Shown here piece after piece: positions 9,678 through 25,490 of a stretch of 64,000 bases of DNA; the first letter of the stretch is position 1, and every line of letters starts with the position of its first letter. Origin of the DNA: Chloroflexota bacterium (lineage in GTDB: Bacteria; Chloroflexota; Anaerolineae; UBA2200); NCBI GenBank assembly GCA_030607875.1, contig JAUWJD010000011.1, forward strand, positions 16,165 to 80,164, given 5' to 3'. Position numbers and translations under genes: made by a program. Under the pieces are notes generated by a model. That model made no database searches. It had not been told where the DNA came from and saw nothing but the letters and a program-made list of their open reading frames with translations.

Positions 9678-9702
9678 AAGACCTCCTTCTGTATCTCCAA
9701 CC

Positions 9703-9885
9703 AAGGAGCCCGTCCGGCGACTTGCCCCGCCTAACCATAGGCGGGACGCTTCGCAGCGGACGGACTGCTATGCTACAATGTGAGTGCTGCGATGTCCGCT
9801 GCACCGTGGCCGTATCCTGGACCGCCTCAACGGTTGCAGGGCTTCTTTCTACGCACTATTGTACAGCCGAAACTATGAGAATCAA
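9703..9885 (-). promoter_or_regulatory. Repeated promoter-leader-terminator module, copy A
   Basis: TTGATT-N16-TACAAT, then CCCTGC-hairpin-GCAGCGG...GTCCGTCCGCTGC, a REP hairpin and GGACGGGCTCCTT. Confidence 0.65.
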
Positions 9886-9935
9886 GAGGCATTCCTCTGG
9901 TATCGGGTGCTGACATTACCATGTAGCAACACTGA

Positions 9936-10517
9936 TCAGCCCACGACCATAATGGTGTGGCCTTGGGCCGCCCAGGCCTTGAAATCTTTCAGAAGCCGGG
10001 GCTCTGGACTTTCCGATATCGCCTGCTCTACATCATCGAGGAACTTGCGCCCAGCTTGCAGCACATGCCCACAAAAAACGTACACATTGAACCACACTTT
10101 CCCATCTTGGTCCTTTGTGGCGTGTTCATGGCGTTTATCAGGATCGTCGGTCCATGTCAGCCGAAATACGCGGTCAGTTATCCCAGGTAGTCCCGGGGTC
10201 AGCCCATGCAACATAGCGCAACGTAGGCTCTTATAAAGGTCAAGGTCAGGATAGCGGCATTCTCGGGCTACTGCATGCAGATACTCGTTTACAAACGCCT
10301 CATATCGTATACGCACGTCGCCCCGCCGGTTTATCCTCTTGGCTTCTGGTCCGTAGTAAAAACCAGCCATCGAATCAATCAATGCCAAGCTATAGACCAA
10401 AGCGGCCACAGGGGCTTTGCCATCCATAATCGCCGAGTACATATTCGGCAAGCAGACGTCGTTCAGATTATCACGAATCGCCTTGACAAGCCATTGTACG
10501 TCTTGGTTGTTCATCAA
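9936..10517 (-). CDS. Hypothetical protein with HEPN-like R-x4-H motif
   Basis: Helical protein with LYKSLRCAMLHG; looks AT-richer than its flanks. Confidence 0.55.
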   Translation of the reverse strand: MMNNQDVQWLVKAIRDNLNDVCLPNMYSAIMDGKAPVAALVYSLALIDSMAGFYYGPEAKRINRRGDVRIRYEAFVNEYLHAVARECRYPDLDLYKSLRCAMLHGLTPGLPGITDRVFRLTWTDDPDKRHEHATKDQDGKVWFNVYVFCGHVLQAGRKFLDDVEQAISESPEPRLLKDFKAWAAQGHTIMVVG

Positions 10518-10603
10518 TGAATCCTTTCCACTGATACGCTCTCAGAGACAGCAAAGAAAAAGCCGGTCCACCGATTTGCAGCGAGCACGCTAGCTACACG
10601 CTC

Positions 10604-12049
10604 TCAGTAGCAATACTGTGACACCAGCTGCCCGTGTGCATCATAGAGATAGCCGCAGTCCCCTTTGTTGTTCCATATTGCACGGCCGCTGCCAAAGCTG
10701 AAACCGCACGTCTCAGGGTGAAACTCGTTGGTGTACACTCGGCATGCTTGCCTTGGGTGCAGAATGAAACCTGGAAAGGTGAAGTCCTGCCCGGGGTCAC
10801 CGGCGTTCAGTCGCCACCGGGCAAGGTTCACTGGGCCAAAACCCTGGTTGAAAACCTCTGCGTACTCGTCGCTCTCGACCCGCGGCACGACGCCGTCATA
10901 GAGGACGTAGCGGATGATCACGTTGGCTTGGCTTGGCCATGTGGGCGTGGCTGTTGCAGTTGGCGTCTGGGTCGGAATGACCGTTATGGTTGGCGTTGCC
11001 GTAGGCATCCCAGGTGGGGGAGGAATCTGGCGGCCACACCCGTAGTCACTTGTAACAAGTATCAGGTCGAAGAGATTGACTACATTATCGCCGTTGAGGT
11101 CAGCGCGTTGGTCGGAGACCGGCCCGTATGGGTTGTAGGCAGACGCCACAATGACCAGGTCGAAGATGTCTACGACGCCGTCACGGTTGGCATCGCCACT
11201 GCAAGCCGTGACGGGCTCATTCTGCAGGGTCACTGTCCAGCCAACACCATCGGTGGTGATCGTGACTGTACCATCGAGGTCAGTGCGGTAGATGCCGGCA
11301 CCGACACCCGCTAGTCTCTGCAACACCTCAGACCTGGGATGGCCGTACTGGTTTGGGCCAACGGAGATGATAGCCTCATGCGGTGTGACCGCGCTGAGGA
11401 ACTCGGCAGATGAACTTGAATTGCTGCCGTGGTGGGCTACCTTGAGAATCTCGGCTTCGAGTGGCAAGCCGCTGCGCAGCATTCGCCCTTCAGCGCCCGT
11501 CTCGGCGTCGCCTGTCAACAGAAAGTCCACGGAGCCGTAGGACACCCGCAACGCTATCGAGTTCTCGTTCTTGGAAACGTACAGCGGATCGGACGGGTTC
11601 AGCACCAGGGCCGTCACTTCACCCCATTGATAGCTTTGGCCCATCCTCACGGTCGCTACGACCACGCCCTTGTGAATCAGCGCCTGATAGAAATCCTGGC
11701 AGGTGCCTGTGGTGCAAGTGAGCGAGTCGAGCCACACCTCGTACACGGGCATGGAAGCCAAAACGTCCAGCAGGCCGCCGATGTGGTCAGCATCACCGTG
11801 GGTGGCTACCATAAGGTCAATGTCAGTGACGCCGTGCTGAGACAGGTAGGCCACCACTGTCGGCCCCGCGTGTGGCTTGCCGCCGTCCACCAGCACATCA
11901 TCGCCGTTGGGCAGGTGGAGCCAGCAGGAATCGCCCTGGCCTACGTCAATGAAGGTAGCCACAAGTGGGGTGTCTGCACGAAGCAAGAAATGAGGGTGCA
12001 GGAAGAAAGCAAGAGCGAGAACCAACAGAACGCCAAGTCTTGCTCGCAC
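10604..12049 (-). CDS. Secreted ComEC/Rec2-type metallo-beta-lactamase-fold hydrolase with dockerin and lamin-tail domains
   Basis: FIDVGQGDS, THGDADHIGG, KVAHHGS; GDANRDGVVDIFDL/DLNGDNVVNLFDL; DEYAEVFNQG...WNNKGD LTD motifs. Confidence 0.85.
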   Translation of the reverse strand: MRARLGVLLVLALAFFLHPHFLLRADTPLVATFIDVGQGDSCWLHLPNGDDVLVDGGKPHAGPTVVAYLSQHGVTDIDLMVATHGDADHIGGLLDVLASMPVYEVWLDSLTCTTGTCQDFYQALIHKGVVVATVRMGQSYQWGEVTALVLNPSDPLYVSKNENSIALRVSYGSVDFLLTGDAETGAEGRMLRSGLPLEAEILKVAHHGSNSSSSAEFLSAVTPHEAIISVGPNQYGHPRSEVLQRLAGVGAGIYRTDLDGTVTITTDGVGWTVTLQNEPVTACSGDANRDGVVDIFDLVIVASAYNPYGPVSDQRADLNGDNVVNLFDLILVTSDYGCGRQIPPPPGMPTATPTITVIPTQTPTATATPTWPSQANVIIRYVLYDGVVPRVESDEYAEVFNQGFGPVNLARWRLNAGDPGQDFTFPGFILHPRQACRVYTNEFHPETCGFSFGSGRAIWNNKGDCGYLYDAHGQLVSQYCY

Positions 12050-12108
12050 AGTACCTCCAAACGCACAATACAGAGGGCTAATGCCCTTCCGCTATTCACC
12101 TGCCAACT

Positions 12109-12314
12109 GAAAAGCCCGTGCACCGACTTTGCCTCGCCGAACCCCGCCGTACAGAGGGCGGGACTTCGCAGATAGCGGGACGCTTCGCAGTGAACGGGCT
12201 GTGATGAGTGCTTCATTGGCCACTGCACCGTGGTCGTAGCCTGGAATTTGCCACAAGTCGCAGGGTTTTCTATTGTCTGAGGCTATTCTACTTCCAGACC
12301 CTCGCCCTTGTCAA
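12109..12314 (-). promoter_or_regulatory. Repeated promoter-leader-terminator module, copy B
   Basis: TTGACA-N18-TAGAAT; CCCTGCGAC...GCAGTGG...AGCCCGTTCACTGC...ACGGGCTTTTC. Confidence 0.7.
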
Positions 12315-12930
12315 GTCTCTCGGGCATCAAGTCCCGGCCGTTTCTGAGGTTCTGGACCGCGAAGGTGTGCCGTTGGCGGTGCGGATCGACCGCGAGCACA
12401 CCAGCACGCCAATGTGTGCGCCGGCCTAGCCCTCGTGGGCAGCGAATAGACGCCGCGTGTGATAGGTTTGGCGCCTGTGACGGGTTGTGACAGGTTTCCC
12501 AGGAATTTTCAGCTGTACTGGCCTATAGGGAGAGTTTCCTGGCAAACTATACATGACTATACATCTATACACACCGGCGGTAGCCGCGCGGTGGCCGCGT
12601 CAGGACCTGATCCAGAAGCGAGAGGCTGTCTCGTGCTATTATGATACACCTGTTGTACACGCAGCTCATGCACGGATCAGTAGCTCATATCCCTGCGCCA
12701 CGGCTGCAGAGACAGGATCTCAGCGTGCGAGTCATTGTGTTTGCCAGCAAGACGGCCAGGGCGACGTTGTGCACACGTGGTCCGCCACATCAGAAGACAG
12801 TCGGTAGGACGACCGGCATATCGCACCGCCTTGTGAACCAGCTTCCGGCCGGCAAGACGACGCATGCGGCGGCCAGGGCTGTTGCAGAGCCCCTCAGGAA
12901 ATCCTAGAGCCCGCCCAAATGCTCAGCATG

Positions 12931-13008
12931 TGTCATTGCGAACGCAGTGAAGCAATCTCCAACCACCGGAAGGAGGAGATTGCTTCGCCCTTCGGACTCG
13001 CAATGACA
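12931..13008. repeat. 78-bp palindromic MITE/REP-like element (TGTCATTGCG...CGCAATGACA)
   Basis: Terminal inverted repeats; inverted copy at 53721-53798 with 73/78 identity by eye. Confidence 0.85.
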
Positions 13009-13038
13009 GACAATGCAACAGCCCTGTGCGGCGGCTAG

Positions 13039-13067
13039 TTGACACAGCTCCGGCACGACGCTAGAAT
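13039..13067 (+). promoter_or_regulatory. Sigma70 promoter, probably for msrPQ
   Basis: TTGACA-N17-TAGAAT. Confidence 0.65.
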
Positions 13068-13349
13068 AGCATCAACTGCTTCGTGCACGGATATCCAAAC
13101 GCATCTCACCGAATCAAGGTAGAAGAAGCGCCATTTGCGCTTGGCAACCTTCGGCGCAGTACTCTGGAAGAGCAACTGTGAATCCGGCTCCTCGCTGGTA
13201 TGACCAGCCTGGCTTTGCGCTGTCCCATGAGCCTGAAGCAGACACGCCGGTCGAGACGATGCTGTACGACGGTCGCGCAGCATATTGTCTAGACTTTCCG
13301 GGTATGATGCAGGACATCTATTGGACCACTGGTTTAGGAAGGAGGGGAC

Positions 13350-14291
13350 GTGCCGAAGATCAGCCCATCTGACATCACGCCTGAGCATGCCTATCTGTCC
13401 CGGCGGAGCTTTATGGCCGGCATGGGCGCTCTGCTTGTCAGCTCGGTGGCACTGAGCGCTTGCGGCGGCCAAGATCCTACACCCGGCCCGGCTCCCGCCA
13501 CCATGCCTCCCTCGCCGAGCGCAAACACCGATGAACTGGGTCAGAGACTGACGTCATATGAGGCGGTTAGCAACTATAACAACTTTTACGAGTTTAGTTT
13601 GAGAAAGGAGGATGTGGCTCGCCTGGCCAGGGATTTCAAGACGTCTCCCTGGACGGTGGAGGTGGCAGGGCTGGTCCACAACCCCAAGACGTTTGGCCTG
13701 GAGGATCTGCTCGCATTTACGCAGGAAGAGCGCGTCTACCGACTTCGCTGCGTCGAAGCCTGGTCGATGGTCATCCCCTGGCTGGGCTTTCCATTGGCAA
13801 GACTGCTCAAAGAGGTCGAGCCCATGACCAAGGCCAGGTACGTGCGCTTTGAGACTCTCTACGATCCGGAGCAGATGCCCGGTCAGAAGAGCCCTTTCTA
13901 CGGTTGGCCCTACGTCGAAGGCTTGCGCCTGGATGAGGCGATGCACGAACTCACTATCCTGGCGACTGGCCTTTACGGCAGCCCGCTGCTGCCGCAGAAC
14001 GGCGCGCCTGTTCGGCTGGTTGTTCCCTGGAAGTATGGTTTCAAGAGCATCAAGTCTATCGTCAGAATAGAATTGGTGGAAGAGATGCCTGTTTCACTGT
14101 GGATGGCCAGTGCACCTCGCGAATATGGCTTCTTCGCCAACGTGAACCCCGAGGTGTCCCACCCTCGCTGGTCCCAGGCGACAGAACGCCTGATCGGCGA
14201 AGGCAAGCGCATCAGAACCACGCTCTTCAATGGCTACGGTGAGCAAGTAGCTCACCTGTACGAGGGAATGGACTTGAGCCAATGGTACTGA
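13350..14291 (+). CDS. msrP: Protein-methionine-sulfoxide reductase catalytic subunit
   Basis: Tat motif SRRSFM, YNNFYEFS, YRLRCVEAWSMVIPW, QNGAPVRLVVPWKYGFKSIKSI, HPRWSQATER. Confidence 0.95.
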   Translation: MPKISPSDITPEHAYLSRRSFMAGMGALLVSSVALSACGGQDPTPGPAPATMPPSPSANTDELGQRLTSYEAVSNYNNFYEFSLRKEDVARLARDFKTSPWTVEVAGLVHNPKTFGLEDLLAFTQEERVYRLRCVEAWSMVIPWLGFPLARLLKEVEPMTKARYVRFETLYDPEQMPGQKSPFYGWPYVEGLRLDEAMHELTILATGLYGSPLLPQNGAPVRLVVPWKYGFKSIKSIVRIELVEEMPVSLWMASAPREYGFFANVNPEVSHPRWSQATERLIGEGKRIRTTLFNGYGEQVAHLYEGMDLSQWY

Positions 14292-14890
14292 TAAGTTGGC
14301 TCAAGAGGAGCTGGCTTCAAGCCCTGGCCCACGCCACGGGGCTGCTACCTCTCGCGTGGCTCATCTGGGACCATTTGCATGGCGCGTTCATCGTAGACCC
14401 GGTCCGGGAAATCACAACCCGCACTGGCAGGACAGCGCTGGTGTTGCTGGTGCTGTCCTTGGCCTGCACACCCATTCACACCCTCTTGGGCCTCAAGTCG
14501 GTGCTCCGTGTTCGTCGGGGTCTGGGACTCTATGCCTTTCTGTACGTCGCGTTGCACTTTCTGACCTTCGCAGGGCTCGACTACCGATTCCAGTGGGACT
14601 TGCTAGGACCCGCCATCTTTGACCAGCTTTACGTTCTGCCCGGTTTCGCGGCTGGCCTGATCCTGCTCGTCCTGGCCATCACCTCTGCCCGAGGATGGCA
14701 AAAGCGACTGGGAAGGAACTGGAAGCGGCTTCACCGTTTGGTGTACCTGGCAGGCATTCTGGCTATTGTACATTTCCTATGGCTGGTCAAAGACACCGGT
14801 GAACCTCTACGTTACGGTGCCATCGTGGCACTGCTGCTGATATTGCGTGTGCCGCGCGTACGAGAAGCGGTCAGCAATGTTCGCCGTTGA
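14282..14890 (+). CDS. msrQ: Heme-binding membrane subunit of MsrPQ
   Basis: RRGLGLYAFLYVALH, WKRLHRLVY, HFLW; overlaps msrP. Confidence 0.93.
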   Translation: MVLISWLKRSWLQALAHATGLLPLAWLIWDHLHGAFIVDPVREITTRTGRTALVLLVLSLACTPIHTLLGLKSVLRVRRGLGLYAFLYVALHFLTFAGLDYRFQWDLLGPAIFDQLYVLPGFAAGLILLVLAITSARGWQKRLGRNWKRLHRLVYLAGILAIVHFLWLVKDTGEPLRYGAIVALLLILRVPRVREAVSNVRR

Positions 14891-15020
14891 GCCCCAGATC
14901 GTGGGAGCGGTGGCCTGAACGGTCGTCCCTTGGGGTGCGCCGTACGCCGGGCGGGTGAAGAGCAACACCACGCAGAGCACAACCAGGACGGTGCAGGCAA
15001 GGAAGGCGAAGCCGTGGCGG

Positions 15021-16331
15021 TCAGGATGGCCTGGCTGACGGGGAATGGCGACTGCGCCCCGCCCAACAGCGGCGGGACGGTTCCCAGCCCCGCCCAACAG
15101 CGGCGGGACCTGCGGCAGGGGATGGCGGCAAGGATGCGATAAACCTGCCCACCAGATCAATGATCGCGCCCTCTTTCTGCCAGGCTTCCTCTCCCCATAC
15201 TCCGTGCAAGGCATTGGCAGTGGTGACAATGACCATGTCGAGTTCATGCAGCAAGACAATGAGGTTCCCACCATGCCCCCAGGCATAGTCAAAGTGATGT
15301 CTGCCTGCCCTGGCAGACCACCACAGGTAGCCATACCCGATGTCGCGGAAATAGCGGCCCAGCCGGTTGTTGTAGAGATTCTCTGAATACCTCTGCAGTG
15401 ATTCCCTCACCCAATGAGCTGGGATGATCTGCTGCCCTTTGTATTCACCGTCATTGAGGTACAGCAGGCCGAACTTGGCCGCATCGCGAGCGTTAAAAGA
15501 GATATCCCCGCTGCCGTAGTAGTAGCCGTTGGCATCGATCGGCCAGTAGCCCACCTGTGCGTTGAGCGGCGAGAAGAGATGCTGCTGAGCATATGACTTG
15601 AGATCTGTGTCGCACGCTCGGGCCACGATGACCGCCAGGAGATGGGCCGTGAGGTTGCTGTAGCCGAACGCAGTTCCTGGATCGCTGGTGAGGGCAAAAT
15701 CGACCATACGGGGCAGCCAATTGTTGTTCGACAGGAGCAGGTCAAGAGTGCCAGGCGTGAACTCCTCCCAGGGATATCCGGAGCGCATCTTCAAGATCTG
15801 CCCGATGGTGATCTCTTCCTTCCGCGCATCGGTGATCTGAGCGGCGAATTCGGGGAAGAAATCGATCATCCTCTGATCCAGGCTGCTCAAAAAGCCCTGC
15901 TGCAGTGCAATCCCCACCAACGCCGAGGTATAGCTTTGGGTCACCGAGGCCAGCGCCACCCGCTGCCCAATTGACCCGCCATTGAAGTACCGTTCCGCGA
16001 TCAGATAGCCGTTCTTGATGACCAGCAGGCCATAGATGGTGTCCAGGTCGGCCGCACGGCGATACAGCGCCGCCACAAGCTGCGGATCCAGTCCGTGCTC
16101 TGCGGGCGTCGACACCTTCCAGTCATCGCCGGGCAACGGTGTGTAGGCAAGCGCTTCTGGCTTCTTTGTCCAAGAGCCGCAAGCAACCAGCAGGGATAGG
16201 ATGGCGATGACACTGGTGATGAAGAGGATAGAATGCGGACGTCGCCCAGGCGAGAACATGAGGCAGGGCACGATATACTCCCGCATGCGTGACCTCAGCG
16301 TGTGGTTGTCTTTGCGCCCAGTCTTCATCAT
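15021..16331 (-). CDS. Serine hydrolase, beta-lactamase (AmpC-like) family lipoprotein; C-terminus reads through a REP
   Basis: ASVTQS (SxxK site with K to Q), YSN motif, WGHGGN; lipobox LLVAC. Confidence 0.85.
   Translation of the reverse strand: MMKTGRKDNHTLRSRMREYIVPCLMFSPGRRPHSILFITSVIAILSLLVACGSWTKKPEALAYTPLPGDDWKVSTPAEHGLDPQLVAALYRRAADLDTIYGLLVIKNGYLIAERYFNGGSIGQRVALASVTQSYTSALVGIALQQGFLSSLDQRMIDFFPEFAAQITDARKEEITIGQILKMRSGYPWEEFTPGTLDLLLSNNNWLPRMVDFALTSDPGTAFGYSNLTAHLLAVIVARACDTDLKSYAQQHLFSPLNAQVGYWPIDANGYYYGSGDISFNARDAAKFGLLYLNDGEYKGQQIIPAHWVRESLQRYSENLYNNRLGRYFRDIGYGYLWWSARAGRHHFDYAWGHGGNLIVLLHELDMVIVTTANALHGVWGEEAWQKEGAIIDLVGRFIASLPPSPAAGPAAVGRGWEPSRRCWAGRSRHSPSARPS
15057..15131. 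repeat. REP-like doublet CCCGCCCAACAGCGGCGGGAC x2
   Basis: Two palindromic units; the same family occurs at 16.4 and 20.3 kb. Confidence 0.85.
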
Positions 16332-16346
16332 GACACGTTATCCTTT

Positions 16347-16575
16347 CATGCGCGGCCCCGCCTCGCCGAACCACTGGCGAGACGCCCCACTCCGCTGTGC
16401 TTCGGGGACTTCCTCCGGTCGCTTCGCCCCGCCCAACAGCAGCGGGACGGTTCCCAGCCCCGCCCAACAGCAGCGGGACCTGCGGCAGCCTCGCCGAACC
16501 GCTGGCGAGACGCTTCGCAGGGGATGGCGGCAACCGGGTGTACCAGCCGGTGGTGTCGAGATGGCAACGTGAAGT
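16347..16575. repeat. Composite REP-like cluster
   Basis: CCCGCCCAACAGCAGCGGGAC x2, CCTCGCCGAACC(A/G)CTGGCGAGAC x2, and a flank shared with 20350-20403. Confidence 0.85.
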
Positions 16576-16704
16576 GCTGGCAATTACCACGGTCGGACTC
16601 TCACCGACTAGCAGACGACAGCTTCAGGACACACCAACCACCTGGTGGGCGGCATTGTTTCTTGTGTAGAAGCTCGTGCCAAGTAACTCTCCAAGCCGCA
16701 CACC

Positions 16705-17423: not shown

Positions 17424-17470
17424 CAATAACGTGCGGCGCTTTCGGCGTCCGCTGCCAGCCGTGGCTAGGC
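17424..17470 (-). mobile_element. Partially deleted attC-like site
   Basis: GCCTAGCCACGGCTGGCAGCGGACGCCGAAAGCGCCGCACGTTATTG resembles GCCTAAC..GCAGCGGAC..CGTTAG attC families; shorter than a canonical attC. Confidence 0.4.
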
Positions 17471-18443: not shown

Positions 18444-18460
18444 CGTGCTACTCCTTTGCG

Positions 18461-18584: not shown

Positions 18585-18612
18585 CCGCTGTCTCCACACA
18601 AGACCTGTATGG

Positions 18613-19608
18613 TCAAGAACTCTGCTGATAGCCGTTTGCCAATCGTGCCAGAAGCTTGTTTCGCACATCATCTGGCAGGAAGGCTGCTTGCAGTGCATTC
18701 CGGTTGCAGTGGAAAAAGTCTTGGGTATCCCATCCAAACGCTTGATGCAACTTTGCGTACTCTTGGTTTAGCGTAACACCCACCAGAGTACGTCCATCGG
18801 TGTTCACACTAACTGGTATTCCCGCCCGATAGAATCTGTCGATGGGATGATCGGCATAGGTGTCATAGATATTTGTTTGTACGTTGCAGGTTGGACAGAC
18901 TTCGAGATGGATCTGCCGTTGCCGCAGGTGCTCAACCAACGCGGGATCTTCGATACTTCGTACGCCGTGGCCGAGGCGTGACGGAGCAAAGTGCAACAAT
19001 GTTTCCCACACATTGATGGGTCCACGTGCTTCTCCGGCGTGTGCAGTGCAGGGAATACCCCTGTCGCGCGCATACTGAAATGCAGCCATGTGGGCATCAA
19101 TTACACTCCCTGCTGTACCCGCCTCACTGTCGAACCCTGCTACGTACGTGCCACGAAAGTCTTCCACTAAATGCACGGTTTCAAGACTTTGTGCTGGCGA
19201 ATAATAGTGTAACGTACAAAGAATGATCCGCGCTTCGATTCCAGTGCTGCGGACACCCTCGGCGGTTGCCGCGTCCACACTGGCGACGACTTGGCGGGGT
19301 GAGAGCCCTCTTTCGGTGTGCAGCAGGGGGGCAAACCGCATCTCAGCATACAGCACGTTGTCTCTGCGCAGTTGCTCAAACAAGTCCAAGGTCACGAGGC
19401 GAAGCTGCTCTTCTGTCTGCATGAGTGGATAACTGCTGGGAGCACACGCGAGGAGCTCCGCCAAATCCACACACTTGGTTGGGGCAATGAACTTTGTACG
19501 GTACTCCTCAAGCGTGATCGACGGATCGATTTGCGAGACGACCTCATAGCTGAGCGAGCAATCTAGATGAAGGTGCAATTCAACTTTGGGGAGTTCAGTC
19601 CAATCCAT
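18613..19608 (-). CDS. add: Adenosine deaminase
   Basis: ELHLHLD, TAHAGE, RLGHG, EVCPTCN, NTDG. Confidence 0.92.
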   Translation of the reverse strand: MDWTELPKVELHLHLDCSLSYEVVSQIDPSITLEEYRTKFIAPTKCVDLAELLACAPSSYPLMQTEEQLRLVTLDLFEQLRRDNVLYAEMRFAPLLHTERGLSPRQVVASVDAATAEGVRSTGIEARIILCTLHYYSPAQSLETVHLVEDFRGTYVAGFDSEAGTAGSVIDAHMAAFQYARDRGIPCTAHAGEARGPINVWETLLHFAPSRLGHGVRSIEDPALVEHLRQRQIHLEVCPTCNVQTNIYDTYADHPIDRFYRAGIPVSVNTDGRTLVGVTLNQEYAKLHQAFGWDTQDFFHCNRNALQAAFLPDDVRNKLLARLANGYQQSS

Positions 19609-19753
19609 CGTTTTGCCTCCTTTCAGATAGAAATGGCTGCTTTACTGCTTCGTGCACGGATCGCTAAGCGTATCTCACTGAATCATGGTCCCGTCAGGCG
19701 GGATGAACGACATGAGAAGGACCATTTGAGTTTGGCGACCTTCGACGCAGTAC

Positions 19754-20010
19754 TCAGTAGGTTCTGCTGACCGCATCAAACAGCATTCGCAAGAACTGCT
19801 CACGCGATGCTTCCAAAACGACCTCTGCGTTGGGTTCGCGACCCATCAGGAGCAAATGATCAACGACCGACTGGCCCCGGCATAACGGACTCGCCGTCTC
19901 AAGCGCCACGAAGCAGCGGTGTGTCCTCGTGGCGACGGTTGGGTCAAGCGCAATGGCCATCGCAATCGGGTCGGGCAAGTCAAAACCCAACAAGCGCGTC
20001 CTGGTGAGCG
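19754..20010 (-). pseudogene. C-terminal fragment of an inosine/uridine-preferring nucleoside hydrolase
   Basis: LPDPIAMAIALDP...RGQSVVD...PNAEVVL; no N-terminal DxDxxxDD region. Confidence 0.7.
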
Positions 20011-20248
20011 CGAATTGTTGTACGGTCTTTTGGATGTCAACACAAAGTATGGCATGGCTCCAAGAACGTGGCGATGGAGTACCCACAAGCGCGGTCCGAC
20101 TACTGATTATGTGGAGTCTTTCCGTACAACACCCTGTAGGCCGACCTTATCCGCAATCCCTTCGCGAGTAACCCCGCCTCAGCGTTTTCTTGGCTTGCAC
20201 CCCCAGCACGCGCACGTATCCACCAAAGACAAGCCCGTCCACGCGCAT

Positions 20249-20403
20249 GCCCCGCCCAACTGCGGCGGGACGCAGGCGGCCCCGCCCAACTGCGGCGGGA
20301 CCTGCGGCAGCCTCGCCAAACCCCGCCGTACAGAGGGCGGGACTCTGCAGATGGCGACAACCGGGCGTACGAGCCGCCGGTGTCGAGCGGCGTGCAGTGG
20401 GCG
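20249..20403. repeat. REP-like cluster
   Basis: CCCCGCCCAACTGCGGCGGGAC x2 plus CCCCGCCGTACAGAGGGCGGGAC (also at 12143). Confidence 0.85.
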
Positions 20404-20455
20404 ACCAAGGGAAGGCTGAAGCGACTTGACAGGCGCCTGAAAACACCCAGCCATT

Positions 20456-20953
20456 CTATCCCAGCACCTTTTTCAGTACCCCAAAAGAGAAAATGTCACT
20501 GATGCTCTGCACGAACCTGATGTTTTTCAGGTTGTCGCTGGCCAGTGATCCACGCAGGATGATGGGGGTCAGATCAAGATCCTGGGCACCTCGATACGTG
20601 GACAGCACGCAATACTCGGCGCAAAAACCGGTGATGATGACCGTGTCTACGCCAAGGTCTCGCAATTCGTCCTCCAGCGTTGTTTTATTGAAGGAATTGC
20701 CATACGTCTTGTGGATATGCAGGTCCGAGGGCAGTATGTCTAACTGCTCGGGCAATTCGAATCCCTCCTCGCCTGGTACGAGCTTCTCCTCTTCATCGAC
20801 ATGTTGGACGCAGATGACCGGCAGGTCCTTCTCTCTGAACAGCGCGATGGCTGCGTTGATATACTCAATAGCATCGTTGAGAGATTGTGCCGTTGTCGGA
20901 CTGAACGTGAAGAATTTCTTCTGGACGTCAATCACTAACAGGGCCAGCTTCAT
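20456..20953 (-). CDS. Isochorismatase-family cysteine hydrolase
   Basis: ALLVIDVQ, KTYGNSF, ITGFCAEYCV catalytic D-K-C. Confidence 0.92.
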   Translation of the reverse strand: MKLALLVIDVQKKFFTFSPTTAQSLNDAIEYINAAIALFREKDLPVICVQHVDEEEKLVPGEEGFELPEQLDILPSDLHIHKTYGNSFNKTTLEDELRDLGVDTVIITGFCAEYCVLSTYRGAQDLDLTPIILRGSLASDNLKNIRFVQSISDIFSFGVLKKVLG

Positions 20954-21014
20954 TTGAACCTCCCTAATGTGCTGAGTTTTCGCTCACTACCGATTGGTGC
21001 TTCTTCGTCCAGGC

Positions 21015-21140
21015 GGCAAACGGAAAAGCTGAGCTGCCGCGCGGCCTGGCAAAACCAACTTGGGAAAGGGCGAACCCGGAAACGAGACCAGCCTCGATTC
21101 TGGTGCGCGACAGCGCGGTCAGCTTCAGCGAGAGTTATGC
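21015..21140 (-). mobile_element. Best-preserved integron attC site
   Basis: GCATAAC-TCTCG-CTGAAGCTGACCGCGC ... GCGCGGCAGCTCAG-CTTTTCC-GTTTGCC; 126 bp; R''/L''/L'/R' order with complementary arms. Confidence 0.7.
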
Positions 21141-21230
21141 GGCCCACTGGCCCACTGCCGCCAGCCACAACAAAGGGGTGGTAGGTTTGGGCAGGCACAA
21201 CGAGGCGCCTACAACACTGATTGCCACCAA

Positions 21231-22742
21231 TCAGGGATAATCCTTCACCACCAATGGCAGGTAAGTAAACCATTGGTGCCTGAACTCATCCGCGCCGATG
21301 TCGTAGCCGCTCCCTTGCGGACGGGTGTCCCCGTCAATGTCGACCATCACCCCGGCGTCCACGCCCGCATCAATGGCCGCCGCGCCAGGGGCGAGGTGGT
21401 AGTCGCCGCCGTCGGGATCAAGCAAGTCCGGGTCGCCCCAGATGTTCACCGTACCGCTGAGGATGGCACCATCCCCGGCCCAGTCGGTGAGATTGGCCCA
21501 GGGGCCAAAGCCCCACAGGGTGGCTTCCAGCGTGGCCGTGCTCCCCGCCGTCACCGTGATGCCCACCGTGTGGCTGGCGATGATAGTGTTGGGCAGAGCC
21601 ATCGTGGCATCTTGCCCGACAAATACACCCACGCCATCCCCAGCGGTGTTGCGGACGATGGTGTTGTGCCTGAATATGGGGGAGGCTTGCCTAACGTAAA
21701 CTCCTGCACCTCTAGGAGCTTTGTTATCAGCAAAAACGTTATTGTGCACTTTTGTGTCATTGTAACTGATGTACATGCCTCCGCCATAATCGCTGACCTC
21801 GTTATTCAGAATGAGATTACCCGAAACTACGGCGGAGGTTCCGACGTTTATCCCAATCCCACCTCCCTCGCTTCCCTGATTATCACGAATAACGTTTCCC
21901 ACGATGGTTGCGGCTGCGCCGCTCAAGTAGATCCCACCCCCCCTCTCACCCACATTGTCCTGGAACAGATTATCCTCAACCAGGGCTTGAGTCCACATCA
22001 GATACATCCCCCCTCCAAACAAAGAGGTGTTGGAGAGGAATTGATTATGGCGGAAGACGGGCGAGCCGGAGATGACACGAACCCCTCCGCCCCACCTGGC
22101 CGTGTTGCTGATGATAAGGTTGTTTTCCAATTGGGCATTGCTGGAGATGACAGCAATCCCTCCGCCTAATCCCTGCCCTGCACTCGATGCCGGCCCAGCA
22201 TTGTTATTGATGATGGTGCAGTGGTTTATGAAGGCATTGGTTTCGTGGATGTACACGCCACCTCCGGCGTCATCACTGCTATACCCGCCCAGCCCGGTAG
22301 CACTGCCGTGCCTGATGACTAACCCATCAAGGACAGGGGCAACCGGTCCACTGATGTACACAACCCGCCGTGCCCCTTCCCCGTCCAGCACGGTGGGGTA
22401 GGCATCCGGGTCGCGCACCACAGAGCCGGTGGGCGATCCGTCCCAGCCGCCGTAGAGGGTGATGGATTTGGCAATAGTGACAACGGCTGCGCCGGTGCCG
22501 GTGTAGATGCCCTCGGCCACGTAGATGGTATTGGCGCCGGCGGCCTGGGCCAGCGCGGTTTGCAGGGCGCAGGGTTGGGCCTGGGTGCACGCGGTGCCGC
22601 TGCCGGTGGGCTTGACGAACAGGTCAGCGGGGTCGGCGCGAGCTACCTGTGATGTTCCACTCAAGAACAGAACCAACCCGACCAGGAGCAGTCCACTAGT
22701 TGCCATGCCGAAAACGATATGCCTGTACTTGCTGGGGTTCAT
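21231..22742 (-). CDS. Secreted right-handed parallel beta-helix protein with C-terminal YLPLV motif
   Basis: Signal peptide, repeated GGGI/GGGM..N PbH repeats, DIGADE, FTYLPLVVK. Confidence 0.85.
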   Translation of the reverse strand: MNPSKYRHIVFGMATSGLLLVGLVLFLSGTSQVARADPADLFVKPTGSGTACTQAQPCALQTALAQAAGANTIYVAEGIYTGTGAAVVTIAKSITLYGGWDGSPTGSVVRDPDAYPTVLDGEGARRVVYISGPVAPVLDGLVIRHGSATGLGGYSSDDAGGGVYIHETNAFINHCTIINNNAGPASSAGQGLGGGIAVISSNAQLENNLIISNTARWGGGVRVISGSPVFRHNQFLSNTSLFGGGMYLMWTQALVEDNLFQDNVGERGGGIYLSGAAATIVGNVIRDNQGSEGGGIGINVGTSAVVSGNLILNNEVSDYGGGMYISYNDTKVHNNVFADNKAPRGAGVYVRQASPIFRHNTIVRNTAGDGVGVFVGQDATMALPNTIIASHTVGITVTAGSTATLEATLWGFGPWANLTDWAGDGAILSGTVNIWGDPDLLDPDGGDYHLAPGAAAIDAGVDAGVMVDIDGDTRPQGSGYDIGADEFRHQWFTYLPLVVKDYP

Positions 22743-22801
22743 CTTTCACTCCTTCTGTTTTGTTGAGCGCAGGCGGCACAACCACTGATTAGGCTGCGCG
22801 C

Positions 22802-23446
22802 CTATGCTTCACCTAGAACGACACCAGGATGACGTAAGTAGTCTTGCACTTGAGCATAGAACCTCCCCATGTGTATTCCATCCATTAGTGCATGATGTGC
22901 TTGCACACTCAATGGCATCTTTAGGAACTGGCCATCCTCGAAGAATTTCCCCCATGCAAACCGTGGTATAGAATCCGCTGGATGTAAACGAAGCGGGTGC
23001 ATAAAGCTTGTGAACGACACCCATGGTATCGCCGTCATGTACAACCGGTCGTCTTGTCCCGGCTCGTCTTTGACCGTCGGATGTTGCTGCACATAAGCGA
23101 TCTGCTCCGCGGCTCTCGCTGCAAACAATGAGAAGTCCTCAGTATAGTCAATCGAACAGAAGCTGAACAGATCCTCATTCGTTAGAATGGTTGTGGATGG
23201 GTGTACGATCTCGTGCTCTATCACCTGTCCCGCCCGAATGCGATACCGGAACTCGGGAATTGCGTTCGCTGCTCGTGCCAGTAGGTACACTGTCGCCACG
23301 TTGAACGAAATGCCACGCTGCTTGACAACAGGATAGAATGCTGTCAGGTCTATATTTGCACACAAGCTGAAGTGTGGATAGGTCCAGGCGCTAAGAAGCC
23401 TGAAATGCTCGCGTCGTGGCCAAGTCTCCAGGTTAATGTGACGCAT
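22802..23446 (-). CDS. cat: Type A chloramphenicol acetyltransferase family protein
   Basis: INLETWPRREHF, AIPWVSFTS, PRFAWGK, QAHHALMDG catalytic His motif. Confidence 0.85.
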   Translation of the reverse strand: MRHINLETWPRREHFRLLSAWTYPHFSLCANIDLTAFYPVVKQRGISFNVATVYLLARAANAIPEFRYRIRAGQVIEHEIVHPSTTILTNEDLFSFCSIDYTEDFSLFAARAAEQIAYVQQHPTVKDEPGQDDRLYMTAIPWVSFTSFMHPLRLHPADSIPRFAWGKFFEDGQFLKMPLSVQAHHALMDGIHMGRFYAQVQDYLRHPGVVLGEA

Positions 23447-23524
23447 ACTTCACCTCCAGATCGATACGTGAATAGCTTCCAATGTCGTTCCTCCCTAGCC
23501 CAATGCGCGCACGTCTTTGGGAGT

Positions 23525-23680
23525 AGAAAGCCCGCCCACTGCCATTTGCAGCGGACGGGCTGTCATACACAATAAAGTTGCTCCGGTCCCCGCTGCAGAG
23601 CAGCCGTACATTGGACTTTTGCCAAGTCGCAGGGTTCTTATCTTGCCGCGATTCTACTTCTGAACCTTCGCTGCTGTCAA
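23525..23680 (-). promoter_or_regulatory. Repeated promoter-leader-terminator module, copy C (no REP insert)
   Basis: TTGACA-N18-TAGAAT; terminator AGCCCGTCCGCTGC-AAATG-GCAGTGGGCGGGCT-TTCT. Confidence 0.7.
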
Positions 23681-23950
23681 GTCTCTTGGACACAAGTCCC
23701 CGGCGCTTCTGGGGTACTGGATGGCGAAGGTGTGTGCTGGCGGTGCGGATCGACCGCGACCACACCAGAACGCCAGTGTGTACGGCGGCCTGGCCCTTGG
23801 AGGCAGCGAATGTCCGCCAAGTGTGACGGGTTTGGCGCCTGTGAAGGGTTGTGACGGGTTTCCCAGGAATCTTGAGCTGTACTGGCCTATAGGGGAAGTT
23901 CCTGCAAAAACCCTACACGACCATACACAGTGACAGCAGCTACGCACTTT

Positions 23951-23984
23951 AGGACTGGCAGTCCGAGGAAGGACTGCCAGTCCT
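23951..23984. terminator. 14-bp inverted-repeat hairpin downstream of the lipoprotein gene
   Basis: AGGACTGGCAGTCC-GAGGAA-GGACTGCCAGTCCT. Confidence 0.55.
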
Positions 23985-24058
23985 AGCCGAGTACGTGATA
24001 CAAGTGTCCGAGTTCCTTGGCGGACTTGCGCTCAGGATGACAATGTGCTGCGGAGCGA

Positions 24059-24685
24059 TCAGGGCTGGACGCGCTCCGCACAAAACGTCTGGTCGTCGGC
24101 GATCTGCTGCCCGCCCGGCGACAGGCCCTCATTGCCCGTCAGCGACCAGTGCCGGTTATAGTTGCGAACCAGCTGCTCGTGAACCATGTGACACTGTTCG
24201 ACGCTCGTGTAGCCATCGGCATCGCCCGATGCTTTGATTGCCTCGAACTGGTCGATGACTTGGAGAGCGTGGTCGGCGTGCGCCTGGGGGTCGTCTGGCA
24301 GGACGTATTCGGCTGCAGTGAGGTGCCGTTCGGCTGCCACCAGGTCATTCTGCGCCAGGTTCATGCTGGCCGCCTCCACCCGGTAGGTCCAATCGTACGG
24401 CCGCAGCGCGATAGCCTCTTCCATCAATTCTGGGTCGCCTTCCTCCCACGCCTGGTCCATCCAGGCGTCCGCCTGGCCAACCTTGTCGAGCATCTCCTTG
24501 GCCTGCAGGATGGCGTCCAGGCTGGCGTCCCCGGTGGTGCCAAGGATCTTGTAGTTAGTGATCTCGGGGAGAAACATGAGGCCGAGTTCTATGAGGGCCG
24601 CCCGATCCTCACACCCGACGGTGGTCAGGAGCATGGCGCCCAGCAGGCCACAGAGCATCCATTTGCGCAATCGTGTTCCCCTCAT
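24059..24685 (-). CDS. Hypothetical lipoprotein with TPR-like helices
   Basis: LLTTVGC lipobox; AIALRPYDWTYR; ATGA overlap with the upstream gene. Confidence 0.7.
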   Translation of the reverse strand: MRGTRLRKWMLCGLLGAMLLTTVGCEDRAALIELGLMFLPEITNYKILGTTGDASLDAILQAKEMLDKVGQADAWMDQAWEEGDPELMEEAIALRPYDWTYRVEAASMNLAQNDLVAAERHLTAAEYVLPDDPQAHADHALQVIDQFEAIKASGDADGYTSVEQCHMVHEQLVRNYNRHWSLTGNEGLSPGGQQIADDQTFCAERVQP

Positions 24686-25245
24686 CGCTGTCCCTCCCCA
24701 ATGATCTGCCAGATGTCGAAATCGACGCCCAGACCGTCCAGGAATTCTTCGGCGCTGATGGTGCCCCGCTCGAGCGCCTGGATGGCCTCAACGTGATGGG
24801 TGATCGTGAAGAGCGGCACGCCGTCCTCGTCCACATAATAGACGGCGATGCGGTCGATGTCCAGGCCGGCCGCGGCCGAGGCCAGGTCTGGCAGCATATC
24901 AGTGCCCAGATCGCCAGCGAACGGCCGCTGGGGATCAAAGCCCCGCGAGGCGTCCAGCACCGTAAAGGCCACACGCTCGCCGGTGTTGGCCAGTTCCAGC
25001 ACCTGGACCTGCACGCCCTGCGTGCTCATCCCCGCTCTCCGCAGCTCGTTCACCAGGATGCCGGCTGCCTGGCGGTCCGGGGGACCGCCGAGGAGGCGCT
25101 GCGCGGGAGACTCTTGCAGGCCAATGCGCCGCAAGATGCGGAACGGAACGACCGCGGCCCAGATCAGGGCCAGGACGAGCAGCACCAGCAACAGGAGGCC
25201 GCAACCCCCGCAGCCGCCACAACCCCTGCGCCTTTGTATTCTCAT
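24682..25245 (-). CDS. Hypothetical membrane-anchored protein
   Basis: RRRGCGGCGGC plus a TM helix, then a soluble domain. Confidence 0.7.
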   Translation of the reverse strand: MRIQRRRGCGGCGGCGLLLLVLLVLALIWAAVVPFRILRRIGLQESPAQRLLGGPPDRQAAGILVNELRRAGMSTQGVQVQVLELANTGERVAFTVLDASRGFDPQRPFAGDLGTDMLPDLASAAAGLDIDRIAVYYVDEDGVPLFTITHHVEAIQALERGTISAEEFLDGLGVDFDIWQIIGEGQR

Positions 25246-25302
25246 TTGGATACCGCCTTTCTTTGCGCCATACGTCGTGCTTATCGAATTCGATCTCTAG
25301 CC

Positions 25303-25490
25303 AAAAGCCCCTCCACCGGCTTGCCCCTCGGGTCGCAGCCTCGCCGCACACATGGCGAGACGCTCCGCGGCGGACGGGCTTGGATGTGTTGTGTGTTCCC
25401 TGCTGCGCGGTGGCCGTGGCCACGTCTGCTCCAGCAGCGAGGGACTTTTTGTGCACCGTCACTGCACACCCGAACTGTGAGAGCCTTACG
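25303..25490 (-). promoter_or_regulatory. Repeated promoter-leader-terminator module, copy D (diverged)
   Basis: CTCACAGTTCGGGTGTGCAGT matches the copy A promoter; ACGGCCAC, GCAGCAGGG, AGCCCGTCCGCCGC, REP insert, GGAGGGGCTTTT. Confidence 0.55.

Follow-up and report, generated by a model that had tools for sequence, protein, structure and literature searches.

A widespread Anaerolineae leader module with a candidate internal antisense RNA gene precedes unrelated defence and accessory genes

Results

Four copies of one leader module lie in the window

The window, which is the whole stretch of 64,000 nucleotides of Chloroflexota DNA under analysis, hosts four copies (A to D) of a leader module, followed by the genes of a dockerin-domain protein, a metallo-beta-lactamase, a chloramphenicol acetyltransferase and a protein of no Pfam family, respectively (Table 1). 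In sense orientation, the module runs from a sigma-70 promoter through an A-rich start, hairpin P1, hairpin P2, a conserved linker and terminator T to the ORF. All four copies lie on the minus strand of the window, which corresponds to the RNA sense strand. We took the module coordinates from covariance model R2 (CM R2), which confirms the four minus-strand copies of the initial annotation with 94, 77, 78 and 42 bits for A, B, C and D, respectively. A sigma-70-like promoter is indeed found just upstream of A, B and C. The 3'-only piece reported earlier is recovered by alignment directly after the stop codon of the metallo-beta-lactamase gene, with a weak CM R2 match at 10566-10586 (model positions 89-109).

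Copy B lacks the antisense -10 box owing to a 10-nt linker deletion and has also lost the 3' arm of P2. Copy C has neither a REP insertion nor a canonical antisense -10. Copy D lacks the 3' arm of P2 and the linker (all P2 pairs are non-canonical in CM R2) and retains the terminator with its REP. The REPs in the terminator loop of A, B and D leave the stem intact, as first described. Overall, the genome contains 102 REP-type hairpins, compared to 11 in a shuffled genome.

Table 1. Positions of the module copies, of their parts and of the genes that follow them in the window
Feature	Position	Strand	Evidence or detail
Copy A sense promoter	9858..9885	-	TTGATT-16-TACAAT; promoter scan, 9/12 matches; -10 at 9858-9863
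Copy A sense leader	9702..9849	-	CM R2, 94.2 bits, E 1e-17
Copy A A-rich start	9842..9849	-	
Copy A P1	9815..9841	-	
Copy A P2	9786..9810	-	
Copy A linker	9767..9785	-	
Copy A terminator 5' arm	9756..9766	-	
Copy A REP hairpin in terminator loop	9724..9749	-	
Copy A terminator 3' arm	9707..9718	-	
Copy A candidate antisense promoter	9750..9779	+	-35 TTCGCA 9750-9755, 18-nt spacer, extended -10 TGCTACAAT 9771-9779
Copy A predicted antisense RNA, ~65 nt	9786..9851	+	P2' hairpin, then P1' hairpin and U-tract
Gene after copy A, dockerin-domain protein, 197 aa	9111..9704	-	Pfam Dockerin_1
Copy B sense promoter	12285..12314	-	TTGACA-18-TAGAAT; promoter scan, 11/12 matches
Copy B sense leader, short variant	12108..12273	-	CM R2, 76.8 bits
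Copy B P1	12239..12265	-	
Copy B terminator arms	12190..12200, 12113..12123	-	
Copy B nested REPs	12131..12183	-	
Gene after copy B, metallo-beta-lactamase, dockerin and lamin-tail-domain protein, 481 aa	10604..12049	-	Pfam
3'-only relic (linker end and terminator)	10555..10588	-	alignment
Copy C sense promoter	23651..23680	-	TTGACA-18-TAGAAT; sequence
Copy C sense leader	23524..23642	-	CM R2, 78.4 bits
Copy C P1	23609..23634	-	
Copy C P2	23580..23604	-	
Copy C terminator arms	23551..23561, 23529..23539	-	
Gene after copy C, chloramphenicol acetyltransferase family, 214 aa	22802..23446	-	Pfam CAT, 8.8e-38
Copy D degenerate leader	25301..25452	-	CM R2, 42.5 bits
Gene after copy D, 187-aa protein	24682..25245	-	no Pfam family

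The module forms a multi-copy family in Anaerolineae

The 3.4-Mb genome that hosts the window carries 27 copies of the module according to nhmmer and 26 according to the CM, in both cases far above chance expectation, and its sister copies are 80-86% identical. The family was detectable in 93 of 401 sampled genomes and in 74 of 216 genera of the class Anaerolineae. A search of Rfam 15 on both strands returned no match at the gathering threshold or at E <= 10, in agreement with the initial annotation, which could not assign the leader to any known riboswitch class. The phage, plasmid and viral-contig collections contained no match to the module either. The module, composed of a promoter, a folded leader with terminator and a predicted small antisense gene within it, is a widespread Anaerolineae RNA module that is absent from Rfam.

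Copies form same-strand arrays, in which each copy accompanies one or two unrelated genes and the spacing is 0.9-3.5 kb. They cluster in variable islands and adjoin tRNA genes, and identical upstream blocks abut unrelated genes, with the junction lying exactly at the 3' end of the motif. The next gene downstream shares the strand of the motif in 48 cases and lies on the opposite strand in 9, at a median gap of 50 nt, and the random orientation to genes that was initially considered a mark of ordinary repeats was not seen. Downstream genes are defence and other accessory genes with no shared metabolic theme; many are toxins or nucleases (for example MazF, AbiJ, HNH and SNase), and they are not rep genes. 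All-against-all clustering found no recurrent regulator gene in the arrays, no recombinase recurs in them, and no conserved ORF is found in the leader.

Three helices and an antiterminator covary on the sense strand

A sense promoter with up to three mismatches is present in 37 of 95 upstream windows, compared to 8 of 541 control windows, and its -10 box ends 6-13 nt before the motif. The initial annotation had named a lack of covariation as grounds to doubt the module. In the covariance-model family, P1, P2 and T covary: 82.6% of their cells are paired, compared to ~30-42% in slid controls, and 263 cells show double changes, compared to 83±10 in shuffles (0 of 500 shuffles reach the observed value).

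The 5' arm of T can alternatively pair with the loop or the 3' arm of P2, which forms a covarying antiterminator whose key pair is C-G in 20 copies, U-A in 19 and U-G in 8. When the nascent leaders are folded, this arm is paired with the P2 segment in 40 of 62 copies, and the full-length MFE structure of the 'type 2' copies of this genome is the antiterminator form. Several copies have poor U-tracts after T. The covarying terminator and antiterminator bear out the leader architecture initially proposed upstream of unrelated genes. Regarding the two partners suggested for GCAG(C/T)GG, pairing with the terminator segment C(G/A)CTGC holds through the same 20, 19 and 8 pairs, and the compensatory change noticed in copy B is real; pairing with the upstream CCCTGC does not hold, as CCCTG(C) pairs with a downstream CAGGG to form P1. 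An intrinsic terminator just upstream of the ORF, with a 5' arm that can pair with P2, is also what would be expected of an attenuator of the pT181/pIP501 type.

The high copy number in some genomes, the grouping in variable islands beside tRNA genes and the joining of identical upstream blocks to unrelated genes exactly at the motif end are all features of a non-regulatory mobile repeat (MITE, REP or Correia-like), in which promoter-like and terminator-like sequences would occur by chance. We consider this highly improbable, given that the motif is conserved over 74 genera with compensatory changes in three helices, mostly shares its orientation with the downstream gene, stands at a fixed distance from the sense promoter and has no match in the phage, plasmid and viral-contig collections. 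Its termini are complementary only through AAAGCCC/GGGCTTT, without covariation between types, and this, together with the 48 to 9 orientation, argues against membership in the MITE/REP-like class.

Same-strand arrays with interspersed copies would also fit an integron-like recombination site, that is, an attC analogue recognized as folded single-stranded DNA. The motif is, however, made of three hairpins in series rather than a single imperfect palindrome, and there is no conserved GTTRRRY-like core at the junction after the T-tract; by these two features of structure and junction it falls outside the integron attC class. Moreover, ~120 nt of conserved sequence are unlike attC sites, the arrays share no recombinase, and promoter, U-tracts and G·U asymmetry (see below) point to selection at the RNA level, which makes this explanation extremely improbable.

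The opposite strand carries promoter and terminator signals

The main new point to emerge from the sequences is a putative small antisense RNA gene inside the module, on the opposite strand. When read on this strand, the conserved linker has the sequence of an extended -10 box (TGnTAnnnT), 16-18 bp downstream of what reads as a -35 box (TTG...) in the conserved T loop, and P1 with the A-tract resembles a terminator, so that each full module is predicted to encode a two-hairpin antisense RNA of ~65 nt. TGnTAnnnT occurs on the antisense strand of 60 of the 96 copies and on the sense strand of only 6. The extended antisense -10 lies at one aligned position in 45 of the 96 copies, 38 of which also bear TTG 16-18 nt upstream, and a plain TAnnnT is present at the canonical place in 61. 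The consensus of 22 distant genomes returns exactly the expected extended -10 positions (T, G, T1, A2, A4, T6). Sense positions 1-8 contain a mean of 4.4 A's per 8 nt (background frequency 0.19), and the predicted antisense RNAs have two hairpins and a U-tail (z -3.1 to -6.1). A candidate internal antisense promoter and a predicted small stem-loop antisense RNA with its own terminator, as in pT181/pIP501-type systems, are recognizable at the sequence level.

Within the window, the extended antisense -10 is at the canonical place only in copy A. There, a promoter scan picked it up independently on the plus strand (TTCGCA-18-TACAAT, with the TG flagged), and the element is conserved across the module family. 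Promoter position and family pattern suggest that copy A produces the antisense RNA listed in Table 1, which is predicted to fold no better than shuffles (z -0.49; relatives, z -3 to -6). Copies B, C and D have no antisense promoter of their own, as is the case for 16 of the 26 copies genome-wide.

The two strands also differ in the type of imperfect pairs. In P2, A·C pairs of the sense strand, which correspond to antisense G·U, are more frequent than sense G·U pairs (103 versus 27; 20 versus 2 in the diverse set). The same comparison is reversed in T (29 versus 112; 7 versus 33 in the diverse set). This asymmetry shows that selection on P2 acts through the antisense strand and selection on T through the sense strand. 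The P2 hairpin is ~2 kcal/mol more stable on the antisense strand, as seen in 46 of 66 copies. The elements described so far, with their conservation, covariation and strand asymmetry, are direct observations on the aligned copies.

These signals bear on the possibility, raised initially, that the leader is a ligand riboswitch, in which P1, P2 and linker would act as an aptamer for a metabolite or second messenger that chooses between antiterminator and terminator. The conserved unpaired nucleotides (the A-rich 5' end, the linker AgUaUAgCAYRa and the terminator loop C-AAG) all coincide with the U-tract of the antisense terminator, the extended -10 and the -35. Because antisense signals account for every one of them, no conserved ligand pocket is left. 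In addition, the P1 and P2 loops are free to vary in sequence, selection on P2 acts on the opposite strand and the regulated genes have no common metabolic theme. Although the leader has the general architecture of an expression platform, occurs in multiple copies before diverse genes like c-di-GMP riboswitches and, being without Rfam match, could represent a new class, we regard the riboswitch reading as very unlikely. Most probably, the effector is an antisense RNA encoded in cis, which had escaped the initial annotation.

Sequence conservation of the basal P1 stem and junction, together with the alternative pairing, could instead reflect an RNA-binding (anti)terminator protein that acts on P1/P2, with the antisense promoter being secondary or idle. 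The number of NusG paralogues does not track the motif (a single NusG stands against 26 copies in this genome), the clustering of array genes returned no recurrent regulator, and such a protein would leave antisense promoter, antisense terminator and strand asymmetry unexplained. Attenuation by a protein is thus unlikely.

Finally, the succession of a promoter, a structured RNA, a leaky terminator and a gene with a toxic or defence function forms a ToxIN-type layout, and the frequency of toxins and nucleases (MazF, AbiJ, HNH, SNase) downstream would be in line with it. Sense and antisense RNAs might then be a pair with another purpose, either a type I/III toxin-antitoxin-like antidote or trans-acting sRNAs, and the gene would be expressed via leaky read-through. 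The leader, however, contains no small toxin ORF, because its indels are not multiples of three and its helices covary, a common RNA antidote is unlikely as the downstream proteins are mutually unrelated, and the covarying antiterminator argues for regulated read-through. We judge this explanation quite unlikely. Type I toxin-antitoxin systems as a class are also inconsistent with the leader, which has no conserved ORF and shows a 10-nt indel and compensatory helix changes that are incompatible with coding.

Discussion

The reading that we favour, with a probability of roughly 0.65, is countertranscript-driven transcription attenuation in the style of pT181 and pIP501, placed before defence and accessory genes. 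The module would consist of two overlapping convergent transcription units. In the sense unit, the sigma-70 promoter would start an RNA composed of A-rich tract, P1, P2, linker and T, with T ~50 nt (median) before the start codon. The antisense promoter would be built from the module itself, with the -35 in the T loop, the spacer from the T 5' arm and the extended -10 in the linker. The resulting RNA of ~65 nt would comprise the complement of P2, as a stable hairpin, and the complement of P1 with a U-tract as its own terminator; being made of these complements, it would be complementary over its full length to the initial ~70 nt of the sense leader.

We infer that both strands are transcribed, that the two RNAs pair and that this raises termination. 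As the sense leader emerges, the loop or the 3' arm of P2 would pair with the T 5' arm into an antiterminator (pre-emptor), T would be blocked and RNA polymerase would read into the gene. Binding of the antisense RNA to P1/P2 would free the T 5' arm, so that T could form and transcription would stop before the gene. By analogy with pT181, the antisense RNA would act as an OFF signal, and early termination induced by it probably shuts the downstream genes off. Copies without antisense promoter may undergo constitutive read-through, or be controlled in trans by the antisense RNAs of sister copies.

A more speculative extension, which we hold to be rather doubtful, is that the modules form a genome-wide RNA network in which near-identical antisense RNAs of ~10 'master' copies attenuate ~26 defence and accessory cassettes in trans. 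If so, newly acquired cassettes with a matching P2/P1 type would also be attenuated, and cassettes would be released jointly, for example under phage attack, once the pool of short-lived antisense RNAs collapses or is outcompeted. The ~120-nt repeats would double as homologous joints for cassette shuffling behind tRNA genes. Such a network would silence defence islands and control their dosage at the RNA level, with loop types as specificity groups.

Several known systems share parts of this organization. Type III toxin-antitoxin systems (ToxIN) have the same succession of promoter, structured RNA, terminator and toxic or defence gene, but ToxI is a sense-strand tandem repeat processed by its toxin, with neither antisense RNA nor antiterminator. 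Putative mobile promoters and Correia/BOX-type repeats similarly place one upstream regulatory block before unrelated genes of a genome; they are, however, lineage-restricted and have no conserved covarying helices or embedded antisense gene. In prgQ/Anti-Q of pCF10 and icsA/RnaG of Shigella, an antisense RNA encoded in cis promotes terminator formation in the nascent sense transcript, which extends the mechanism beyond replication control (PMC3181467, PMC2879508). These are, however, single loci with longer RNAs and virulence or conjugation roles, and form no multi-copy family.

The repR leader of pIP501 and pAMbeta1, with its RNAIII, is closer, as attenuation is antisense-mediated, the antisense promoter lies midway in the leader and sense and antisense promoters are convergent (PMC5703833). 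It differs in the ~320-nt leader, the 136-nt antisense RNA, the additional CopR repressor and its role in plasmid replication control. The Rfam ctRNA families have no sequence or CM similarity to the modules, and homology to plasmid ctRNAs (ctRNA_pT181, ctRNA_pND324, ctRNA_pGA1, CopA, RNAI) is discarded in the absence of any Rfam CM match; the nature of the downstream genes, which are not rep, and the lack of matches in the plasmid collection speak against membership too. The repC leader of pT181, with the RNAI/RNAII countertranscripts, is a countertranscript-driven transcriptional attenuator (Novick et al. 1989, via PMC5703833). Like the modules as predicted here, it has a small antisense RNA encoded within the leader, a Rho-independent terminator directly ahead of the start codon under control and a terminator 5' arm that alternatively pairs with an upstream 'pre-emptor' in the antisense target region. 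In pT181, this arrangement senses copy number to regulate the replication initiator of a plasmid, and each replicon carries a single module, whereas the modules described here are chromosomal, reach up to 26 per genome and precede unrelated defence and accessory genes in Chloroflexota.

Identification and spread of the leader modules

The initial annotation had described four copies of a common block in the window, and both the reading of the minus strand, which is the RNA sense strand, and the alignment of the four stretches bear this out. The block is composed of an A-rich start, CCCTG...CAGGG, CACGGCC, CGGTGCAGYGG, a variable middle, AGCCCGTYCRCTGC, GGACGGGCT and a final run of Ts. By using blastn and iterative nhmmer, we identified 27 copies of this motif in the assembly that contains the window (3.37 Mb, 69 contigs), and a first covariance model (CM), R1, counted 26. 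Most of them form same-strand arrays with a spacing of 0.9 to 3.5 kb on contigs C45, C47, C51 (which hosts the window), C68 and C69.

Rfam 15 returned no match to the motif, either when the whole window was searched at gathering thresholds or when both sub-regions were searched at E ≤ 10, and the only hit was a glmS ribozyme elsewhere in the window. The family is therefore new and outside Rfam, in line with the initial annotation, which could not match it to a known riboswitch class. The ribozyme (RF00234, 54.2 bits) has a 50-nt insertion relative to the model and adjoins an unusually long tRNA-Arg(GCG) predicted by ARAGORN.

A CM search of Chloroflexota had been proposed at the outset, and the successive model R2 detected the motif in 93 of the 401 sampled Anaerolineae genomes, corresponding to 74 of 216 genera. 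Since at most nine candidates were scored per genome in this class-wide survey, its per-genome copy counts read as 'at least'. Only six genomes of other classes in the phylum-wide sample carry the motif, and the closest multi-copy relative is an uncultured Anaerolineales bacterium (G001). Within a genome contig collection, five of 50 pattern matches were real according to the CM, all on three loci of one Anaerolineales MAG, with one further weak match on a Streptomyces contig. We rejected an origin from phages or plasmids, as blastn found no match to the motif in phage and plasmid collections and the CM discarded all 57 pattern matches on viral contigs.

Coordinates of the modules and associated features (window positions unless a locus, L, is given)
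Feature	Position	Strand	Remarks
Copy A	9702-9849	minus	covariance model
Copy B	12108-12273	minus	covariance model
Copy C	23524-23642	minus	covariance model
Copy D	25301-25452	minus	covariance model; degenerate, without P2 3' arm and linker
3'-only piece	10566-10586		weak CM match
Predicted antisense promoter of copy A	9750-9779	plus	TTCGCA-18-TACAAT with TG extension; independent promoter scan
REP-like hairpins (examples)	9724-9749, 12131-12183, 25338-25363, 16340-16560, 20180-20330
Upstream block of B and C	12330-12660, 23690-23950	minus	about 330 nt
Stretch resembling P2 region	17424-17470	minus	AGCCACGGCTGGCAGCGGACGCCG
glmS ribozyme	47708-47928	minus
tRNA-Arg(GCG)	47437-47533		97 nt
Segment between tRNA-Pro(GGG) and its partial copy	L072 880-4509 (C47)		3.5 kb
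tRNA-Arg plus module unit	L077 1541-1803 (C30)
Small gene ahead of three modules	L071 4069-4617 region, L073 3387-3905 (C45, C68)
Extra hairpin in P2 loop, or P1 absent	L074 7470-7640; L083 2738-2840 and 13703-13808; L009; L088
Type 3 copies	L091-L097, L112, L118 (G020, G066)		extra hairpin before P1

The sense strand encodes a terminator/antiterminator leader

We scored the helices of the sense strand on an alignment of 74 copies, which supports three hairpins in series: P1, of 10 bp with a bulged C; P2, of 9 bp with a 7-nt loop; and the terminator T, of 11 bp followed by a U-tract. The helix cells are paired in 82.6% of cases, compared to 30-42% when the partner columns are slid, and 263 cells show changes on both sides, compared to 83±10 after shuffling (none of 500 shuffles reached 263). 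CCCTG, which had been thought to pair with GCAGCGG, instead has its partner in the CAGGG of P1. The alternative partner of the T 5' arm is the P2 loop in type 1 copies and the P2 3' arm in types 2 and 3. At the central pair of the type 1 antiterminator, 20 copies have C-G, 19 have U-A and eight have U-G, which confirms the compensatory change reported for copy B. When the nascent leader is truncated immediately ahead of the T 3' arm, 40 of 62 folds pair the T 5' arm with the P2 segment; at full length, T is formed in most copies.

A sigma-70 promoter with up to three mismatches precedes 37 of 95 copies, compared to eight of 541 control windows, and the promoter scan also recovers those of copies A and B. 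Since the -10 box ends 6-13 nt ahead of the motif, the sense RNA would start at the A-rich tract. The next gene follows at a median distance of 50 nt and is co-oriented in 48 cases, compared to nine in the opposite orientation, which is not the random orientation that the initial annotation had weighed against an attenuator. Promoter, covarying hairpins, alternative pairing and co-oriented gene therefore show that the proposed terminator/antiterminator leader is real. Class-wide covariation, orientation bias and fixed promoter distance do not fit a MITE or a REP-type repeat, just as the three-hairpin structure and an RNA-type strand asymmetry do not fit an attC-like site.

As first described, REP-type hairpins sit within the terminator loops of A, B and D and leave the stem unbroken. 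The genome contains 102 of them, compared to 11 when shuffled. They have the consensus GTCYYGCY...RGCRRGGY, and where this type of terminator is concerned they are preferentially inserted at TGCGAAG| in its loop, immediately ahead of the antisense -35. The putative attC relic does resemble the P2 region of the motif, but it gives no CM match at E ≤ 5; it may be a decayed module before a GNAT gene.

Some copies deviate from the common architecture. In type 3 copies the sense promoter lies around 60 nt further upstream, and an additional conserved hairpin, GTAGAGC...GCTCTAT, separates it from P1. Others have an extra hairpin, CCTCTTACC...GGTAAGAG-ACT, in the P2 loop or are devoid of P1, and may represent another specificity type.

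Other modes of leader control were also considered. We discarded a leader peptide, given a 10-nt indel, the missing ribosome binding site and the covariation of the helices. NusG/LoaP/RfaH-type antitermination was rejected, as the number of NusG paralogs per genome does not follow the motif. None of the consensus sites of ANTAR, PyrR, TRAP/HutP and T-box appears to fit the loops or the linker, and Rfam has no match. Pairing between the A-rich 5' end and GGGC plus the U-tract is possible in some copies, but shows no covariation between types. APC-corrected mutual information revealed no pseudoknot beyond P1, P2, T and the subtype signal, and the linker has no candidate trans partner, as the genome holds no site complementary to it outside the motif copies.

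The opposite strand carries a predicted antisense RNA gene

We built a consensus from 22 copies of diverse Anaerolineae genomes. Its conserved unpaired residues fall in three places, with ARAAG as the 5' tract, AgUaUAgCAYRa as the linker and C-AAG within the terminator loop. On the opposite strand the linker becomes TGcTAtAcT, with the best-conserved positions (T, G, T1, A2, A4, T6) being exactly those of an extended -10, and the terminator loop becomes CTTG, which provides the TTG of a -35 located 16-18 bp upstream. Examples are TTGACA-17-TGCTACAAT, TTGACG-18-TGCTATACT and TTGACT-17-TGCTATGCT. TGnTAnnnT is found on the antisense strand of 60 of 96 copies, compared to six on the sense strand; it occupies one aligned position in 45 copies, 38 of which have TTG at -35.

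This putative promoter is followed by the complements of P2, of P1 and of the A-rich tract, the last two composing a GC-rich hairpin with a U-tract, that is, a terminator. The predicted antisense RNAs are around 65 nt long with two hairpins. Representatives on contig C45 of this genome and in other genomes fold with z-scores of -3.1 to -6.1; the fold of copy A is weak (z -0.49). Ten of the 26 copies in this genome retain the antisense promoter. Short variants such as B, with a 10-nt deletion in the linker and loss of the P2 3' arm, are among those without it. From nucleotide 1 to the end of P2, some promoterless copies (including B and two on C45) are 80-86% identical to a promoter-bearing copy, and others are less similar.

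Because each G·U pair corresponds to a C·A mismatch on the complementary strand, the counts of the two reveal which strand is under selection. T shows 112 sense G·U and 29 sense A·C in the 74-copy alignment (33 and 7 in the diverse set). P2 shows the opposite, with 103 sense A·C, corresponding to antisense G·U, and 27 sense G·U (20 and 2 in the diverse set), and P1 is neutral. In 46 of 66 copies, the antisense version of the P2 hairpin is also the more stable one, by around 2 kcal/mol. Thus, T is an RNA structure of the sense transcript and P2 primarily one of the antisense transcript.

These data modify the initial interpretation of the motif as a candidate riboswitch. Its conserved unpaired positions coincide with antisense promoter and terminator signals, so that no conserved residue remains to form a ligand pocket, and selection on P2 acts on the antisense strand; a ligand-binding riboswitch is therefore unlikely, and the effector would instead be the antisense RNA. 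This is also a warning for riboswitch hunting, as a conserved 'single-stranded linker' can be a promoter of the opposite strand.

Downstream genes and variable islands

The genes that follow the motif are unrelated to each other. In the window they encode a dockerin protein, an MBL-dockerin-LTD protein, CAT and an unknown protein. Elsewhere in the genome they encode a D12 DNA methyltransferase, a 1077-aa type ISP/IIG restriction enzyme, a ResIII helicase, two Schlafen/AlbA_2 proteins, DUF3800, AbiJ, M41-like peptidases, GYD and a SAM methyltransferase. In other genomes we found Cas10/Csm1, NACHT, DUF499, MazF, C5 methylase, UvrD, WYL, HNH, SNase, TPR-trypsin and S8 peptidases, a GAF response regulator and FGE-sulfatase. 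According to PADLOC, 88 downstream ORFs match 153 defence models with E-values down to 1e-267 (including IIG RM, PbeA, DrmMII, BrxF, SduA, mad2 and PDC-S32), compared to only four models matched by 31 ORFs from the rest of the window. After clustering the 414 array ORFs, we found no recurrent recombinase or regulator, and only the dockerin-protein family recurs, following the motif in four genomes. A role similar to type I or type III TA systems is possible for some copies, although the leader contains no toxin ORF and the downstream proteins are too diverse for one RNA antidote.

B and C share an identical upstream block that switches to different genes precisely at the 3' end of the motif, and so do three modules on C45 and C68 and two tRNA-Arg modules. 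The repeats therefore also mark recombination joints in variable islands. Eight of the 74 copies are preceded, within 500 nt, by a tRNA gene on the same strand. The distance from its 3' end is 17-80 nt for six of them, and several of these copies apparently lack their own promoter.

On C47, the segment between a full tRNA-Pro(GGG) and its 70-nt partial copy hosts an HTH_17 excisionase-like gene, three modules and an internal tRNA-Arg(CCG), and the unit of tRNA-Arg and module recurs on C30 before a different gene. This arrangement looks like tandem integration at tRNA genes, with no integrase nearby. On C45 and C68, a small gene ending in DADGDAVACEALP, which looks excalibur-like from its sequence, precedes three modules with different downstream genes. 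The block shared upstream of B and C contains three AACC(C/T)(G/T/A)TCACA repeats and a hairpin, GGTGTGC...GCACACC, and could represent iterons, arm-type binding sites or the remnant of a larger mobile unit.

A probable countertranscript mechanism and its known counterparts

We consider transcription attenuation driven by an antisense RNA (countertranscript) to be the probable mechanism, with a probability of about 0.65 on the basis of sequence comparisons. The T 5' arm has the same sequence as the loop region of P2', the complement of P2 in the predicted antisense RNA (GUCCGCUGC in type 1), and the cis strand and the trans RNA would therefore compete for the sense P2 loop. P2 is deliberately weak in the sense leader, which makes it easier for the T 5' arm to invade it. 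With the antisense RNA bound, transcription would terminate, and without this RNA it would read through. The 16 copies of this genome without antisense promoter may undergo constitutive read-through or be controlled in trans.

The motif would then be a known attenuation mechanism in a new setting, namely chromosomal, multi-copy and before defence and accessory cassettes of Anaerolineae. Countertranscript logic would here form a large family, spread over 74 genera or more of a class that has received little study, with up to 26 copies per genome. Its copies lie immediately ahead of defence genes (restriction-modification, Abi, toxin, NACHT, Cas10 and others), as well as of genes for secreted dockerin proteins and CAT. 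If true, this lineage would possess an RNA-only device to express and restrain horizontally acquired, potentially toxic cassettes. The motif would also be an annotation marker for defence and accessory islands in Chloroflexota and, for synthetic biology, a natural collection of related attenuator/antisense pairs that differ in loop type.

To our knowledge, antisense-RNA-driven attenuation is known from a few controls of plasmid replication or conjugation and from single chromosomal loci. In pT181 repC and pIP501 repR, a terminator immediately ahead of the start codon can form once the antisense RNA is bound; otherwise its 5' arm is paired to a pre-emptor located upstream (PMC5703833). pCF10 Anti-Q and Shigella RnaG are related examples (PMC3181467, PMC2879508). 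The parts of the module, here recognised from sequence alone, correspond one for one to those of the pT181 repC and pIP501 repR attenuators.
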